DNA from: Candidatus Tayloriibacteriota bacterium
GTDB taxonomy: Bacteria > Patescibacteriota > Minisyncoccia > Phycocordibacterales > PALSA-1337
Direction: 5' to 3'
Length of the DNA: 64,000 nucleotides
NCBI GenBank assembly: GCA_037130865.1
Contig: JBAXSG010000001.1
Coordinates: 41,429 to 105,428, forward strand
Shown here in pieces: positions 1,510-5,802 of this stretch. The position numbers and the translations under genes are program-made. Each line of letters starts with the position of its first letter. The stretch's first letter is position 1. Below the pieces are notes generated by a model. It ran no database searches. It saw only the letters and a program-made list of their open reading frames with translations, and was not told the origin of the DNA.

Positions 1510-2148
1510 TCACCGCCGTGCTTTTACGGGTTTTACGGATTCTGCTAGATAAGCCTGAACCATTAAAGCAAAACCACGCTCAATGACGAACTTGTAGCCG
1601 GGGCGATCGTAGGACGCATCTACCCACCGACCACCATCGGCACAGCCAACACGGAGAAAGAACGGGTTGCCTCTGGAATCCTTGACTGAGTCACACATGA
1701 CAACAATCCAATCCAGACCCATCTCCTTAAAGTCCTCATCCGAGAGCGTCTCACGGATTTGGAACAATATTTCAATGTTCGTCTCCAGTGCTTTTCCATA
1801 CTTCAGTCCGCGCTTGTCACCTTCGGCTTGAATGTTCTTGAAGGTGCGGTTACCGTCTTCGAACAGCACCCCTTTCAGCACCGCGATTTCGCGGATGACA
1901 CCAGTCGTCGGCGGCATAACCAGCTTACTGAAAACTTTAGTGGCTGATTTGCTAAAGCGGAAACCCTGATCCATAAGACGCTCTTTCCACTCTGGATATG
2001 TTGTACCGTTAGTGGCAGGAAGTTGGATATAAATTACACCATCAACTTCACGCCAACGCTTTACATGCTCTTTTGCAGCCATGATGATGGCCTTTCTCCG
2101 ACCAGTGGTCGGGATTGTCCTTATACATACGTGATAAGGATTGTTCAA
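1510..2148 (-). CDS. hypothetical protein on an elevated-GC segment, upstream neighbour of the DGR
   Basis: 212-aa ORF with no recognisable motifs. Local GC is visibly higher than the flanking pgk. Start is uncertain (an alternative Met at about 2082). Confidence 0.4.
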   Translation of the reverse strand: MNNPYHVCIRTIPTTGRRKAIIMAAKEHVKRWREVDGVIYIQLPATNGTTYPEWKERLMDQGFRFSKSATKVFSKLVMPPTTGVIREIAVLKGVLFEDGNRTFKNIQAEGDKRGLKYGKALETNIEILFQIRETLSDEDFKEMGLDWIVVMCDSVKDSRGNPFFLRVGCADGGRWVDASYDRPGYKFVIERGFALMVQAYLAESVKPVKARR

Positions 2149-2190: not shown

Positions 2191-3273
2191 TCAATGACAT
2201 GAATTCGTCCACAACATTTGAGACTTTCCTGGTAATTGATTATATAACCTTATTTGTTGGCCTAGTTTATAACTATTTCCATGCGAAAGCATACCTAGAT
2301 AAGAGTTAAGCGTGGCCTCATATTTTTCGCTCTTTTCACTATCACCTTCACTATCTATAACTGCCTTTTTAGCCAACAAGTTTCTAAACATCCTCTTCTT
2401 GGTGGTTGTGCGTAAGACGCGATATTTAGGAAAATGAACCCAGCCAAGAAAATCTATACCGGAAGAAACAGTCTCTATCGATACTTTATCGGGATGAAGA
2501 TCCAGTCGCAATTCGCTCTGCAAAAAATCGCGAACTTTCGGGAGAAGACCGGCCAAAACACCTCGGTCATCATGCATAACCAAAAAATCATCGGCGTAGC
2601 GGATGTAATATCTCTGTTTCAGTTCATGTTTAATAAATTGATCCAATTCGTTTAAGTAAATATTTACCAGAAGTTGCGATGTAAGATTCCCAAGTGGCAG
2701 ACCTTTACCAAAACCGCCGGCACCACCAACAGCACCAACGACCTTACCACTAGAAAAACTGGAGATTATTTTCCAAAGCAACCCGAGAGTCGCATCATCC
2801 ACGGTATGCCTTCGTAAAACCCTCATCAAAACTTCATGATCAATAGAAGCGAAGCACTTGCGCACATCACATTTCAAGACCCAACAAGTTCGCCTGTGAT
2901 TTTTCGAAACTTTGCGTGCAAATTGTCTGAAACGATTTAGTGCTTTGTGAGTTCCTTTGAAATCTCTGCATGAATAAGAGTCAAAGATGAATCTCTTATC
3001 AAAAATCGGATACAAAATTCTGTATATAGAGTGATGCAATAATCTGTCACGAACAGTGGCTTTATGTATTATCCTAGTCTTAGGATCATTTATGATAAAA
3101 CTTTCATATAATCCGTGCGCATAGTTGCCATATAACAAATCTCTATATAAATCCGATATATTGCTAGACAGCTTTATTGTAAATTCAGCCACATCGTCTT
3201 TGCGGTTTTTGTCCACCACAAATTCCCGCCAGGCCTTGCATAAATTTTGAAAAGATATAATATCCTCGTACAT
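2191..3273 (-). CDS. diversity-generating retroelement (DGR) reverse transcriptase
   Basis: 360 aa. RT motifs are present: IINDPKTRIIHKATVRDRLLHHSIY (motifs 1/2), GLPLGNLTSQLLVNIYLNELD (motif 4 with the DGR-specific xGNLTSQ signature in place of group-II QGxxxSP) and YIRYADDFLVM (YADD catalytic motif 5). Size and N-terminus (ISFQNLCKAWREF) are typical of DGR RTs. Confidence 0.9.
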   Translation of the reverse strand: MYEDIISFQNLCKAWREFVVDKNRKDDVAEFTIKLSSNISDLYRDLLYGNYAHGLYESFIINDPKTRIIHKATVRDRLLHHSIYRILYPIFDKRFIFDSYSCRDFKGTHKALNRFRQFARKVSKNHRRTCWVLKCDVRKCFASIDHEVLMRVLRRHTVDDATLGLLWKIISSFSSGKVVGAVGGAGGFGKGLPLGNLTSQLLVNIYLNELDQFIKHELKQRYYIRYADDFLVMHDDRGVLAGLLPKVRDFLQSELRLDLHPDKVSIETVSSGIDFLGWVHFPKYRVLRTTTKKRMFRNLLAKKAVIDSEGDSEKSEKYEATLNSYLGMLSHGNSYKLGQQIRLYNQLPGKSQMLWTNSCH

Positions 3274-3332
3274 ATGAATTTAACTCAAAATCAAAATCTT
3301 TCTCATAGTACCCCCCCCGCAAAACGCCACAA

Positions 3333-3698
3333 GTGCTTTTGAAAGAGAAAGTGGTATACCGATCGTGGATATCGCTTCATAGGAATTTTCCGCGAATAGA
3401 AAGATTGGGTATTGGCCAAAAGATAGAGGCCTCTTTTCTGGATATTCTCGAATATACTTTCGTAGCAATGTATCTGGCATCTGACCAGAAAATTCTGATG
3501 CTCAGTAAAACCATAGCCAAACTAGATAAATTGAAATTTTTCATGCAAATAGCGTGGGAAAATAAACTCATACCAGAAGAAAAATATGCCCAGATATCGC
3601 TGGATCTTGAAGAGATTGGCCGCCAACTCGGCGGTTGGAGAAAGGGGTTGCAAACATCCGACCCAACGAAAACTCCCACCACAGGACAAGCCGCGTAG
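3333..3698 (+). CDS. avd: DGR accessory variability determinant (Avd-like four-helix bundle, 23S rRNA-IVS protein family)
   Basis: 121 aa from a GTG start. FPRIERLGIGQKIEASFLDILEYTFVA ... LEEIGRQLGGWRKGLQ aligns along its length with Bordetella phage bAvd (IPRKHGVAREMFLKCLLGQVELFIVA ... IAEVGRILGSWIARVNRKGQ). It lies between the RT and the TR but on the opposite strand. Confidence 0.72.
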   Translation: MLLKEKVVYRSWISLHRNFPRIERLGIGQKIEASFLDILEYTFVAMYLASDQKILMLSKTIAKLDKLKFFMQIAWENKLIPEEKYAQISLDLEEIGRQLGGWRKGLQTSDPTKTPTTGQAA

Positions 3699-3712
3699 TA
3701 GGAGAAATGGTA

Positions 3713-3830
3713 AGTTTCGGAACCACGATGCGATTCCTGTTCTCGGCGTTCCACACATTGTCGTTCAAGAAGCGGTTCACGTTCACCTTGGGAGCTCCAT
3801 CGGAGTCCAGATTCACGTTCGCGACGAAGA
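3713..3830 (-). repeat. DGR template repeat (TR)
   Basis: 118-nt segment homologous to 4163-4280. The conceptual translation VNLDSDGAPKVNVNRFLNDNVWNAENRNRIVVPKLT is rich in AAC/AAT codons. Every TR/VR difference falls on a minus-strand adenine of the TR. Confidence 0.85.
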
Positions 3831-4146
3831 AAATATGCAATAAACCATCCGTTACACCATCGGCCAAATCATGACCGATTGAATTTCATTTGGGACATAG
3901 AAGTCCGCCAGTTCATTGCACCAACTGACTATTTTTTGTTAATAGGAATACATCCACTCTCCTGCAAGACGTATCCGGCAGAATTCTCGAATGTATTTCT
4001 TCACAAGCGTGGCGCGGAAGCCTTGGCCGCCGCACATTCAGACTTGTGATGCTACTATAACAAAATCACCCCAACCTGTGGAGTGCCATCTTTTTCAGAC
4101 GGCACACCACAAGGGTCAGAGTGATTGATAGTCAGAGCGTCAAGCG

Positions 4147-4836
4147 CTAAGACTCGAGGGTCAGTTGCGGAACCACGATGCGACTCCTGCCCTCGGCGTA
4201 CCACACAATGCCGCACAAGAAGCGGTACACGTGCACCTTGGGAGCCCCATCGGAGTCCAGATCCACGCGCGCGACGAAGAGTTCACCATTGGCTTCGAAT
4301 AGGAAGAGCGTCCAGAAGTCTGTGCTGAGCCACTTGTGGTGGTTCTTCACAAACTGGATGATCTGAGGCTGTGGGAGGCACAGCTTTTTCGAATCCTCCG
4401 ACAAACTATCGAAGATTTTTTGATAGTTGCCGTTCTTGATGAGTTCATGAACAGCAACGTTCGTTTCCTTCGTCGGTTCGCTCTTCACATCGCAACCCCA
4501 GTTCTTGAAGTCGCAGTCGATGCCCCAGGTGAAAACTTTCTCTGCCCGAGCAATAGTCTCCTTGCCATCGGTTGGTTTGAGCGTGATGGTTTCCGCGCCC
4601 GAGATGAGCTTAAGGCAACCGCTCACGTTCTCGGTGATTTCTGCAAGCTTCTTCTTCACCGCTTCCATGACCACGGTTTTGAGTTCATTGCCGCGCTCCA
4701 CGAGTTTCTGAATGTTGTCACCGTTGATGACATCATTCTTTTCGAGGTCTTGGATCGCCTCCTCGGTGGCTTTACGAGCTGCCGATGTTGCGACTGTTAC
4801 GACTTGTTCTTTCTGACCAGATGTAATCGGTTTCAT
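4147..4836 (-). CDS. DGR target (variable) protein with a C-terminal VR-encoded ligand-binding segment
   Basis: 229 aa. The C-terminus ...FVARVDLDSDGAPKVHVYRFLCGIVWYAEGRSRIVVPQLTLES* is the diversified copy of the TR-encoded peptide (N->R/D/H/Y/C/I/Y/G/S, D->G, K->Q). There is no obvious N-terminal signal peptide. A ribosome-binding site AAAGGA lies 9 nt upstream of the ATG. Confidence 0.8.
   Translation of the reverse strand: MKPITSGQKEQVVTVATSAARKATEEAIQDLEKNDVINGDNIQKLVERGNELKTVVMEAVKKKLAEITENVSGCLKLISGAETITLKPTDGKETIARAEKVFTWGIDCDFKNWGCDVKSEPTKETNVAVHELIKNGNYQKIFDSLSEDSKKLCLPQPQIIQFVKNHHKWLSTDFWTLFLFEANGELFVARVDLDSDGAPKVHVYRFLCGIVWYAEGRSRIVVPQLTLES
4163..4280 (-). repeat. DGR variable repeat (VR) inside the 3-prime end of the target gene
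   Basis: Offset exactly 450 nt from the TR. There are 15 mismatches to the TR within 3731-3820 versus 4181-4270, all plus-strand T in the TR changed to C/A/G in the VR (adenine-specific on the coding strand). The 3-prime flank (4150-4170) is GC-rich and shows non-adenine mismatches to the TR (IMH versus IMH*-like). Confidence 0.85.
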
Positions 4837-5031: not shown

Positions 5032-5802
5032 CTAAATAGAGACTCTGTCAACCTCTTTTATAAGCTCCACAAATCCAGGAATATTTACACTTTCGCGGCC
5101 GACAAGAAGACCATCGACTTTTCCGATAGTGATAATGTCCGGCGCATTGCGGTATGTCACAGAACCACCATAGAGCACTGTAACTTTGAGACCCATATCG
5201 GCACCATAGAGATCAGCGAAAACTTTTTTAATGAAAAGCGAAGTCTCGTAAACATCTTCTGGCTTCATAGCTTCCGCGGCGCCGATAGCCCAGATTGGCT
5301 CATAAGCAACTATTATTGACTTGGCTGACTTCTTCAATATATCTCCACAACTGGCCTTGATCTGATCTTTCAGAAAACCTAGATACGCGCCGCTTTCATC
5401 GCGAACGGATTCTCCTATGCAAAGTATCGGCGTCAAACCTTGACCAAGTACCGCTTTCAAACGTGCCGCGACTGTTTCGTTGGTGTCGCCGCGCTTGCGC
5501 TGCTCCGAATGTCCAACGATGACATATTCAACTCCAATATCACGCAACATGTGCGCTCCAACTTCACCTGTATGTGGCCCACCTTCTTCTTGAGTAGAGA
5601 CCGTCTGCGCACCCATGTGAAAATGAGCAATCTTCTTGCGAGATGCGCAAGCTGTAATAAATGGCAATGGCGGACAGATCACGACTTCTGTATTGGCTAA
5701 GGCGGGTGCTGCGCGCTTGAATTTGTGCGAAAGTTTCTTGGCCTCAGCGAGCGTGGCTGGGTTCATTTTCCAGTTTCCGACTACTAGTTTTTTGTTAGTC
5801 AT
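5032..5802 (-). CDS. tpiA: triosephosphate isomerase
   Basis: MTNKKLVVGNWKMNPATLAEAKKL... has the canonical TIM N-terminus (GNWKMN) and catalytic residues. The ATG at 5802 is preferred over the ORF start at 5823. Confidence 0.92.
   Translation of the reverse strand: MTNKKLVVGNWKMNPATLAEAKKLSHKFKRAAPALANTEVVICPPLPFITACASRKKIAHFHMGAQTVSTQEEGGPHTGEVGAHMLRDIGVEYVIVGHSEQRKRGDTNETVAARLKAVLGQGLTPILCIGESVRDESGAYLGFLKDQIKASCGDILKKSAKSIIVAYEPIWAIGAAEAMKPEDVYETSLFIKKVFADLYGADMGLKVTVLYGGSVTYRNAPDIITIGKVDGLLVGRESVNIPGFVELIKEVDRVSI

Follow-up and report, generated by a model that had tools for sequence, protein, structure and literature searches.

A VR-end signal complementary to its own guide RNA in a Candidatus Taylorbacteria DGR: a familiar type of element, unusually rearranged

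How the cDNA of a DGR finds the VR, and why the TR is never overwritten, is an open question (PMC12875486), and the sole proposal for targeting comes from one system, BPP-1, where an RNA primer attached to the cDNA is proposed to pair with the IMH (PMC5703328). The same question is raised by the locus described here, which lies in a stretch of 64,000 nucleotides (the window), and for which the original prediction, made from the letters alone, placed an IMH-like, GC-rich element at the 3' end of the VR. This location was right, and so was the concept of an asymmetry between VR and TR at the 3' boundary, which could give the transfer its direction.

The window holds a DGR of a Candidatus Taylorbacteria genome, with a reverse transcriptase (RT) gene adjoining a TR/VR pair. 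The main parts of the locus are as follows:
2191 to 3273, minus strand: DGR reverse transcriptase (RVT_1, E = 3e-27)
3333 to 3698, plus strand: bAvd-like accessory gene, avd (PF22296, E = 1.4e-12)
3713 to 3830, minus strand: TR, the template for the VR
4147 to 4836, minus strand: target gene (229 amino acids) with the VR at its 3' end
4163 to 4280, minus strand: VR, aligned to the TR without gaps at an offset of 450

Each of two collections contains more than 500 relatives of the RT, and the RTs of the related DGRs are 53–61% identical to it. The avd gene lies on the strand opposite to the RT and TR, convergent with the TR RNA, an orientation that is the same in one relative. A Pfam search gave no domain for the target protein, which has 159 homologues (the 100% match being from Candidatus Taylorbacteria) and carries the VR in C-terminal position, with the residues P Q L T L E S and the stop codon around the VR end. 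The closest relative (L081/L082) has lost both TR and avd and is unusable as an orthologous TR/VR pair; the boundary statistics were taken over 64 related loci.

The A-to-N differences in the VR of the window span positions 4269 to 4184, and all 14 mismatches in this body fall on TR adenines, while non-A mismatches in the body amount to 11/3532 over the 64 loci. In a near-identical strain, the VR also differs from that of the window almost solely at TR-A sites, save two T>C changes. At the 3' side, all 64 loci have G at TR position 0 (TR 3718 in the window, presumed to be the first templated base), adenine mutagenesis stops ahead of this invariant G, and TR-VR homology ends 5 nt past it (the G itself being VR 4168). 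TR adenines are kept in the VR at +2 in 46/52 loci and at +3 in 54/62 loci, compared with 40% in the body. The VR base at +1 is C in 58/64 loci, in all three reading frames, and of the 27 loci with a TR adenine at this position 24 carry C in the VR (P = 6e-21 relative to the usual spectrum of A sites), which means that the predicted asymmetry is a family-wide feature and is not random with respect to side. From +6 on, about 70% of positions mismatch; the window itself has 4/8 matches past +5 (P = 0.14 by chance). The imperfect repeat expected of an IMH right after the A-to-N region is thus present, and the 3' boundary of mutagenesis is at 0/+1.

On the minus strand, VR 4170 to 4155 reads CCGCAACTGACCCTCG and TR 3720 to 3705 reads CCGAAACTTACCATTT. 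The five predicted differences do exist at their sites (4167/3717, 4162/3712, 4158/3708, 4156/3706 and 4155/3705), being in this order A>C, T>G, A>C, T>C and T>G, although the bases listed for them (a/c, a/g, t/g, a/c, t/g) were wrong at two entries, and two of the five are template adenines, contrary to the claim that none was. Repeat homology had been drawn over roughly 16 nt, of which the part to +5 (VR 4163) is supported; since homology ends there, the differences at 4158, 4156 and 4155 belong to an unrelated flank, and together with the A/C rule this leaves 4167 and 4162 as the positions that alone look meaningful. The proposed likeness to IMH and IMH* therefore survives in these two, C instead of A at 4167 and G instead of T at 4162, both of which lie in an octamer that is complementary to a guide strand in the RNA of the element:
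4160 to 4167, minus strand: IMH-equivalent core, the guide-complementary VR octamer CAACTGAC, +1 to +8 after the invariant G at 4168
3922 to 3936, minus strand: guide, or presumed priming strand, ending in AAAAATAGTCAGTTG, placed from the leader alignment, covarying with VR +1 to +6 and analogous to BPP-1 Sp 48-57
3704 to 3717, minus strand: IMH* equivalent, the TR 3' flank AAACTTACCATTTC, pairing imperfectly with the guide, with mismatches at 3717 and 3712

VR 4167 to 4160 and the guide segment GTCAGTTG (3929 to 3922), single-stranded in the leader, form 8/8 Watson-Crick pairs, while the TR reaches 6/8, with mismatches exactly at 3717 and 3712; the VR copy is thus the better complement of the presumed primer strand, as an IMH should be relative to IMH*. 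The 3' G of the guide (3922) is invariant in the family, and so is the next G (3921). The prevailing guide-VR pairs are AGTTG/CAACT, ACTTG/CAAGT and AATTG/CAATT, rarer compensated variants are also present, and nine distinct, fully complementary 6-mer combinations were found among 92 loci; as each of the three main guide classes may represent a clade, the independent compensatory events are fewer than the loci, with at least about seven countable from the variants. The mean contiguous Watson-Crick run was 5.25 bp for cognate guide and VR, 3.13 bp for non-cognate pairs and 2.1 bp for the TR, and none of 2000 permuted pairings reached the observed mean. The guide-VR covariation score was 0.382 compared with 0.159 when shuffled (0/500) and 0.05–0.15 when slid. 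Additionally, 28 further distinct metagenome loci from outside the first set gave mean runs of 5.0 (VR), 1.9 (TR) and 2.85 (non-cognate), and contained new compensated variants of up to 11 bp.

The guide-VR duplex is short, typically 5-6 bp, pairing beyond 6 bp being real in single loci, and within a guide class the cognate pairs are barely better than the non-cognate ones. In register, pairing is poor in seven of the 64 loci, whose run is 2 bp at most (L004, L031, L032, L046, L058, L073 and the L017/L050/L056 group, the last requiring wobble and a 1-nt shift). In 27 loci, the window included, a TR A lies opposite the presumed priming G.

The guide is part of a structured RNA upstream of the TR, of which the following elements were recognized:
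3831 to 4048, minus strand: leader of the TR RNA, about 230 nt, conserved and structured, lying between the terminator of the VR and the TR
3910 to 3921, minus strand: 5' strand of a long-range 12-bp helix, starting directly after the guide (RNAalifold columns 306-317 with 555-566)
3835 to 3846, minus strand: 3' strand of this helix, stopping 4 nt before the TR and resembling the BPP-1 cPRT Stop duplex
4054 to 4082, minus strand: promoter-like site for the TR RNA, TCCACA-17-TG-n-TATAGT, from a consensus scan only
3669 to 3704, minus strand: terminator-like hairpin with an 11-bp stem and a TTTT run, directly after the TR and overlapping the avd 3' end on the other strand

RNAalifold predicted 30 pairs in the leader, of which 26 have compensatory changes, and the stretch from 4048 to 3665 folds with an MFE z of −3.58, while an Rfam scan of 3200-4400 gave no match at E <= 1, RT-10 included. 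In the long-range helix, 10 of 12 pairs have been preserved through changes of both partners in at least one sequence (from 1 to 37 sequences, depending on the pair). Against the TR flank the guide is paired at +2, +3, +5 and +7 to +15, and systematically unpaired at +1, +4 and +6 (63 distinct loci), and the helix from +2 to +15 shows covariation at +8, +11 and +12; a single-sequence MFE fold did not recover this guide-flank helix. A TGnTAtAcT box is conserved at the promoter-like place in the family. RNAalifold gave no structure on the TR 3' region as MAFFT misaligned the 5' arms, and the hairpin after the TR was therefore counted by an anchored scan, which placed the start of a hairpin with a trailing T run at +13 to +18 in 58/64 loci; its CTC/GAG base is conserved, its distal stem varies yet stays paired, and the antisense LGGW codons that follow it are conserved in the family. 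By these sequence features, the TR RNA appears to have a promoter and a terminator of its own.

It was already proposed for BPP-1 that pairing with the RNA primer is what distinguishes IMH from IMH* (PMC5703328), and when re-derived here, BPP-1 Sp 48-56, ending at the priming A56, pairs 9/9 with the VR IMH and 6/9 with the TR IMH*. The two systems share the position of the element at the VR 3' end after the last A-to-N site, the imperfect copy in the TR, the better match of the VR version to the RNA strand at the priming end (9/9 and 6/9 in BPP-1, 8/8 and 6/8 in the window), a template G beside the duplex and a G after the priming nucleotide. The guide, paired to the TR 3' flank beside the first templated G and the invariant GG, resembles the BPP-1 primer with Sp A56 and G57; the strand after the primer pairs just upstream of the TR (3921-3910 with 3846-3835), clamping the TR ends as the cPRT Stop does (10.1101/2023.10.23.563531), and a stem-loop directly follows the TR, where BPP-1 has its Avd-binding stem-loop. 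However, the (GC)14 block of BPP-1 is absent, the VR-specific complementary part is 6-8 nt in the window family and about 21 bp in BPP-1, and the presumed priming base is G, not A. In the window this G faces a TR A, unlike in BPP-1, where a base pair at the priming nucleotide is needed for cDNA synthesis. The primer strand and the RNA domain of BPP-1 lie in the spacer downstream of the TR (Rfam RT-10), while those of the window lie upstream, so the RNA of the window is a circular permutation of that of BPP-1, running from the primer strand and the first stop-helix strand through internal hairpins to the second stop-helix strand, and from there through TR and IMH* to the hairpin and the U tract; avd is antisense.

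We consider the segment to be the IMH equivalent of a Patescibacteria-type DGR, which marks the 3' boundary of TR to VR transfer and tells the recipient VR from the donor TR, with a probability of roughly 0.7. Judged from sequence comparison, it would be a genuine IMH equivalent, short and not GC-rich, with the primer of the DGR RNA upstream of the TR. To hypothesize by analogy with BPP-1, the leader strand would fold onto the TR flank, where its invariant 3' G (3922) would prime cDNA at TR G3718, and the next G (3921) would face the template G, as Sp G57 faces TR G117. The RNA would remain attached to the cDNA 5' end, and this RNA-cDNA hybrid would then anneal to the sense strand of the VR, through its RNA portion at the IMH and through its cDNA over the remaining VR. 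The TR would be the poorer target through its mismatches at 3717 and 3712, and homing would run one way. A VR-end signal pairing with the RNA of the DGR itself thus probably tells the mutated cDNA where to land.

Other explanations of the same data have to be weighed. The VR bases +1 to +6 could be overwritten passively by sequence from the RNA primer whenever homing takes place, the complementarity being a by-product of priming with no role in the choice of target. The VR agrees with the guide, unlike the TR, at +1, +4 and +6 and over about 6 nt only, as a patch derived from the primer would, and Naorem et al. envisage processing of the primer at the VR by RNase H and Pol I (PMC5703328). Yet in BPP-1 the boundary of marker coconversion was placed upstream of the first templated base, and primer-proximal information is therefore not transferred there (PMC5703328), and a BPP-1 recipient must carry the IMH before homing, which makes this explanation unlikely. 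Such a patch and a role in recognition are not mutually exclusive. Less probable again, and rather improbable, is a regulation in cis, where the target mRNA would read through into the leader and its VR 3' end would pair with the guide, controlling translation, mRNA stability or the activity of the TR RNA and not the targeting of cDNA. The complementary segments do share a strand, separated by about 230 nt, and the terminator-like hairpin of the window is followed by a merely weak and displaced T run, but a strong hairpin with a T run separates both segments in most relatives, and neither the pairing of guide and TR flank beside the invariant GG, as in the BPP-1 primer, nor the stop of mutagenesis at position 0 would be explained.

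It seems very improbable that there is no special element, with homology merely decaying and the VR bases preserved because the C-terminal residues of the target protein are under selection. The segment is coding, and three of the five differences are in unrelated flank; however, the anchor G stands at codon position 2, 3 and 1 in 37, 17 and 10 loci, CGCAA is kept in all three frames, the VR motif CG-C-AA-N is thus independent of reading frame, C at +1 is kept even at synonymous third positions (11/12), and the base at VR +4 shows covariation with one in non-coding RNA at a distance of about 230 nt. Coding constraint on the VR end was rejected by this reading-frame analysis. Most remote of all is a site of the BPP-1 type itself, with a GC-rich IMH and then a cruciform-forming inverted repeat recognized as a structure, which is close to what was predicted and which directs attention downstream of the VR, where three features were noted:
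4136 to 4148, no strand assigned: palindrome AGCG-TCAAG-CGCT, 4-bp stem, overlapping the stop codon (4147-4149), inside an octamer array
4075 to 4113, minus strand: composite hairpin of 7 + 9 bp with loop GAAAA, downstream of the target gene, then a weak T run
4110 to 4162, minus strand: 8-nt repeat units, consensus G[A/G]CCCT[T/C][T/G], with units at 4162-4155 and then in register from 4149 to 4110
The VR copy is indeed richer in G+C over the 16 nt (11/16 compared with 6/16 in the TR copy), but VR −14 to 0 has a mean G+C of 65% against 66% in the VR body, and in VR −20 to +8 the longest run without A or T is 2-8 nt in the family (mode 5), against 14 in BPP-1. The palindrome is present, overlapping the stop codon and not just past it as had been described; folding of 4090-4180 was no better than shuffles (z = +0.08 as DNA, +0.24 as RNA), and the palindrome is not conserved in relatives, so it was rejected as a functional element and taken as a chance feature. 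The BPP-1-type hairpin (7-10 bp GC stem, GRNA loop, 4-34 bp from the VR) is not conserved among the 64 loci, in which a hairpin of at least 7 bp within 40 nt occurs in 13 and loops of four nucleotides fit GRNA in 2 of 18, so that neither the GC-rich part nor the hairpin of the predicted element was found as a conserved feature, and the family differs from BPP-1 in being without a GRNA-loop cruciform within 4-34 bp. A hairpin with a T run downstream of the target gene is found in 48/64 loci at a median start of +60 from the anchor, some of the stems being weak and low in GC.

The octamer array has a lag-8 autocorrelation of 0.37 compared with about 0.22, GACCCT is 55-fold enriched, and 81 of 155 unit pairs are spaced by 8 nt. 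From TCGCATCG to about 4134, past the stop codon and through the first of the octamer units, the near-identical strain has the same sequence, with two single-base differences further on, in the array. The exact motif occurs once in the 64-kb window, by which a general genome repeat was rejected, and inspection revealed no consistent complementarity of the octamers to the leader or the TR tail.

In the end, the VR-end signal belongs to a kind of element already known, but its form is unusual and rearranged. The family of the window brings the same relation of primer and IMH in very distant elements, with many natural compensatory changes, which makes the primer/IMH hypothesis directly testable and suggests a rule for retargeting, namely to change guide and IMH together. 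It also means that a functional DGR RNA can be arranged otherwise, and that surveys restricted to the region downstream of the TR would miss such RNA. A wider reading, to which we give slightly less than even odds, is that this large Patescibacteria family (more than 500 loci in each of the two collections) has a self-contained, circularly permuted RNA, with primer, stop and protein-binding domains 5' of the TR, its own promoter and terminator, and an antisense avd, that the covariation of guide and IMH is the first comparative evidence for primer-IMH pairing as a general rule of target and direction, and that the octamer array is an extra, undescribed target-site element replacing the cruciform.

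Outside of DGRs, the closest parallels are found in retrons and group II introns. In the retron msr-msd, a duplex of distant parts (a1/a2, with the branching G) likewise sets a conserved G beside the first templated base, a parallel drawn in 10.1101/2023.10.23.563531; priming from the 2'-OH of an internal nucleotide, which gives a branched RNA-cDNA molecule in cis-primed DGRs of the BPP-1 type, is a prediction for the DGR of the window. The EBS-IBS pairing of group II introns is similar in that a short RNA segment (5-8 nt) pairs with a DNA target and selects the integration site, and group IIC introns also have their target upstream of a terminator-like hairpin (PMC3240598). Retron cDNA undergoes no adenine mutagenesis and no homing into a target gene. 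Unlike the group II intron, the DGR of the window is without ribozyme, reverse splicing and target-primed reverse transcription, and its guide is at the same time the presumed primer of the cDNA.

The DGR components of the window are listed here.

2191-3273, minus strand: reverse transcriptase (RT; RVT_1, E = 3e-27)
3333-3698, plus strand: bAvd-like gene (avd; PF22296); TR and RT are on the other strand
3830 to 3709 (TR) and 4280 to 4159 (VR), minus strand: 122-nt direct repeat, offset 450
4147-4836, minus strand: target gene, 229 aa

Between 3819 and 3734, all TR/VR mismatches (14/14) lie at TR adenines. A Candidatus Taylorbacteria protein matches the target protein at 100% identity, and none of the target's 159 homologues carries a Pfam domain. 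The RT gene and phosphoglycerate kinase are separated by an ORF of 212 aa without a Pfam match (1510-2148, minus strand), which is missing in the close strain L081.

One genome per species was scanned, which gave at least 80 related loci, almost all from Patescibacteria, with RTs 53-60% identical to that of the window among the matches listed; 63 of the 80 have a TR/VR pair arranged as in the window (target/VR, about 450 nt, TR, RT). The conserved TR motif G[A/C]AACT served to anchor all TR/VR pairs; its G (TR 3718 and VR 4168 in the window) is denoted here as position 0, with positive numbers downstream. Upstream of this anchor, 40% of TR adenines are kept in VR and the rest are read as G (36%), T (14%) or C (10%), while non-adenine mismatches amount to 11/3532; from -9 to 0 the TR is nearly without adenines. 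At +1, VR has C in 24 of the 27 loci where TR has A (P = 6e-21), TR adenines are unchanged in VR at +2 (46/52 loci) and +3 (54/62), and at +4, where TR is C in 58/64 loci, VR has G in 29, C in 19, T in 11 and A in 5. TR and VR are unlike at about 70% of positions from +6 on, which means that there is no homology there; since homology is lost past +5 across the family, that of the window ends at 4163, past which 4/8 positions match, as chance gives (P = 0.14). The CG-C-AA sequence is kept in VR in all three frames, with the anchor G at codon position 2, 3 and 1 in 37, 17 and 10 loci, and the +1 C is retained in 11/12 cases in which it occupies a synonymous third codon position; therefore, the constraint is on the nucleic acid, and not on the protein.

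A partner for this segment is found in the leader, an RNA segment of about 230 nt that separates the VR terminator from TR (window 3831-4048, minus strand; same place in L001-L080, the related loci), which is conserved across the family and has no match to an Rfam family. RNAalifold predicted 30 pairs in the leader, 26 of them with compensatory changes, including a long-range helix of 12 bp whose 3' strand stops 4 nt short of TR, and the predicted 384-nt RNA folds better than 100/100 shuffles (z = -3.58). The leader is probably the functional domain of the DGR RNA, lying upstream and not downstream of TR. Just 5' of the long-range helix there is a single-stranded A-N-T-T-G followed by an invariant G, which we call the guide (the presumed cDNA primer), and it complements VR +1 to +5. 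The main guide/VR pairs are AGTTG/CAACT, ACTTG/CAAGT and AATTG/CAATT, with rarer compensated variants (AGTAG/CTACT, AGCTG/CAGCT, ACTCG/CGAGT and TGTTG/CAACA), while TR +4 stays C irrespective of the guide. The pair formed by the second guide nucleotide and VR +4 is CG in 22, GC in 18 and AU in 5 loci.

The mean contiguous Watson-Crick run is 5.25 bp for cognate guide and VR, 3.13 for non-cognate pairs and 2.1 for TR, and the cognate mean was reached by 0/2000 permutations. In the 8-bp guide/VR structure 78.8% of cells are paired, and the covariation score is 0.382, compared with 0.159 for shuffled sequences (0/500) and 0.05-0.15 for a slid partner. In the window, the guide GTCAGTTG (3929 to 3922) pairs 8/8 with VR CAACTGAC (4167 to 4160) and 6/8 with TR, the TR mismatches being at 3717 and 3712. 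The guide-VR prediction held in 28 further distinct loci from a metagenome scan (mean run of 5.0 bp with VR, 1.9 with TR and 2.85 for non-cognate pairs), which added the new compensated pairs GAAGCTACTTG/CAAGTAGCTTC (11 bp) and CAGGAATTG/CAATTCCTG (9 bp), the variant TATGCG/CGCGTA, and a guide ending in C with a VR G at +1. Altogether, the 92 loci contain 19 guide 6-mers in 38 combinations with VR 6-mers; nine distinct combinations are fully complementary, and 30/38 have at least 5/6 pairs. The duplex is short, and as guide classes may be clades, the independent events may be fewer than the loci.

A second partner of the guide strand is the TR 3' flank, where pairing extends over +2 to about +15; positions +8, +11 and +12 covary, and there are systematic mismatches at +1, +4 and +6, exactly the positions that are complemented by VR and not by TR; VR complementarity to the guide ends after +6. 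The presumed priming G of the guide (3922) pairs with C in VR, but faces the TR A (3717) as a G x A mismatch in the window and in 26 other loci; the family either primes despite this mismatch or uses a different nucleotide for priming. In the DGR of Bordetella phage BPP-1, the equivalent of this pair (A56 of the spacer RNA, Sp, with TR U118) is needed for cDNA synthesis (PMC6182149).

Putative pairs of IMH and IMH*, the VR-side and TR-side target signals of BPP-1, have been reported for nearly all DGRs (PMC5758913), so this kind of element is already known, and primer/IMH complementarity in BPP-1 was noted earlier by Naorem et al. (PMC5703328). In the BPP-1 genome, Sp 48-56 (AGGTGGTCA), which ends at the priming A56, pairs 9/9 with the VR IMH and 6/9 with the TR IMH* in the same register. 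What is added here is family-wide covariation supporting primer-IMH pairing. It is already known that BPP-1 priming occurs by the 2'-OH of Sp A56 with TR G117 as the first templated base, that Sp G57, which pairs G-G with G117, is required, that the strand past the primer pairs with sequence upstream of TR (the cPRT Stop), and that an Avd-binding stem-loop lies directly 3' of TR (PMC6182149; 10.1101/2023.10.23.563531). Similarly, in this family the guide ends in invariant GG, the template G is invariant at position 0, the long-range helix abuts TR and a stem-loop follows TR. Unlike in BPP-1, the presumed primer strand and the stop strand precede TR, which makes the arrangement a circular permutation of the BPP-1 RNA. 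The variant features of this family are the presumed primer strand in its upstream place, a putative self-contained TR RNA with antisense avd, and an array of octamers.

The original prediction of a GC-rich, hairpin-bearing IMH at this site had the right place and the right idea. Both 16-mers compared in it (4155-4170 and 3705-3720) are as written and differ at the five positions named, although two of these, claimed to be non-adenine, are template adenines: the change is A>C at 3717 and 3708, T>G at 3712 and 3705, and T>C at 3706, and two entries had been listed wrongly. The IMH/IMH* asymmetry is carried by 3717 and 3712, which mismatch the guide in TR and pair with it in VR, and not by the other three. 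The block is no richer in G+C (65%) than the VR body (66%), with the longest G/C-only run being 2-8 nt. The inverted repeat AGCG-TCAAG-CGCT is present at 4136-4148, but it has a stem of only 4 bp, overlaps the stop codon and sits inside the octamer array; 4090-4180 folds no better than shuffled sequence (z = +0.08 for DNA, +0.24 for RNA), and a BPP-1-type hairpin, by the criteria of PMC3240598, is not conserved in relatives. Judged by sequence comparison, the VR 3' segment is a genuine IMH equivalent that is short, not GC-rich and without a real hairpin.

The array consists of tandem 8-nt units (consensus G[A/G]CCCT[T/C][T/G]) common to the family downstream of VR (64 loci; window 4110-4162, minus strand), with a lag-8 autocorrelation of 0.37 against about 0.22, a 55-fold enrichment of GACCCT and a spacing of 8 nt in 81/155 successive units. 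The units are specific to this site, CTCTGACCCT as an exact motif being present a single time in the 64 kb of the window. It sits between the VR end and a terminator-like hairpin, and in several loci the last unit is the 5' arm of the hairpin. This hairpin with a T run has a median start of +60 (48/64 loci, uneven strength) and is followed by a -10-like box. On the 3' side of TR, 58/64 loci have another hairpin (window 3669-3704, minus strand) that begins at +13 to +18, with a T run and a CTC/GAG base that is conserved; avd is antisense to it and convergent with the TR RNA, and this fixed-distance hairpin and T run overlap the avd stop codon. Because of the antisense avd and the conserved hairpin, TR seems to be transcribed as its own small RNA, apart from RT.

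L081 and L082 represent a syntenic, nearly identical strain that retains RT, leader and VR, while TR and avd are gone (3540-4200 compared with window 3200-4300), with a few base differences in the VR-to-TR spacer. Its VR differs from that of the window almost only at TR-adenine sites; the stretch that begins with TCGCATCG and takes in the stop codon and the first octamer units is the same in both, to about 4134, after which the array has two single-base differences. This fits recent DGR activity with a fixed IMH, and suggests that the VR was diversified recently, before the template was lost.

Locus L039 has two target genes whose VRs (391-516 and 2987-3112) both match one TR; they share the CGCAAGT end, the same terminator hairpin and near-identical repeat arrays, diverging only past the hairpin, which fits a duplicated target unit of VR, array and hairpin. 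In the window, a perfect 18-nt inverted repeat GGAAAATGAACCCAGCCA (arms 2429-2446 and 5754-5771) brackets most of the DGR, with one arm antisense inside the RT gene and the other within the triosephosphate isomerase codons for GNWKMN; chance would give about 0.001 repeats of this kind in 9 kb.
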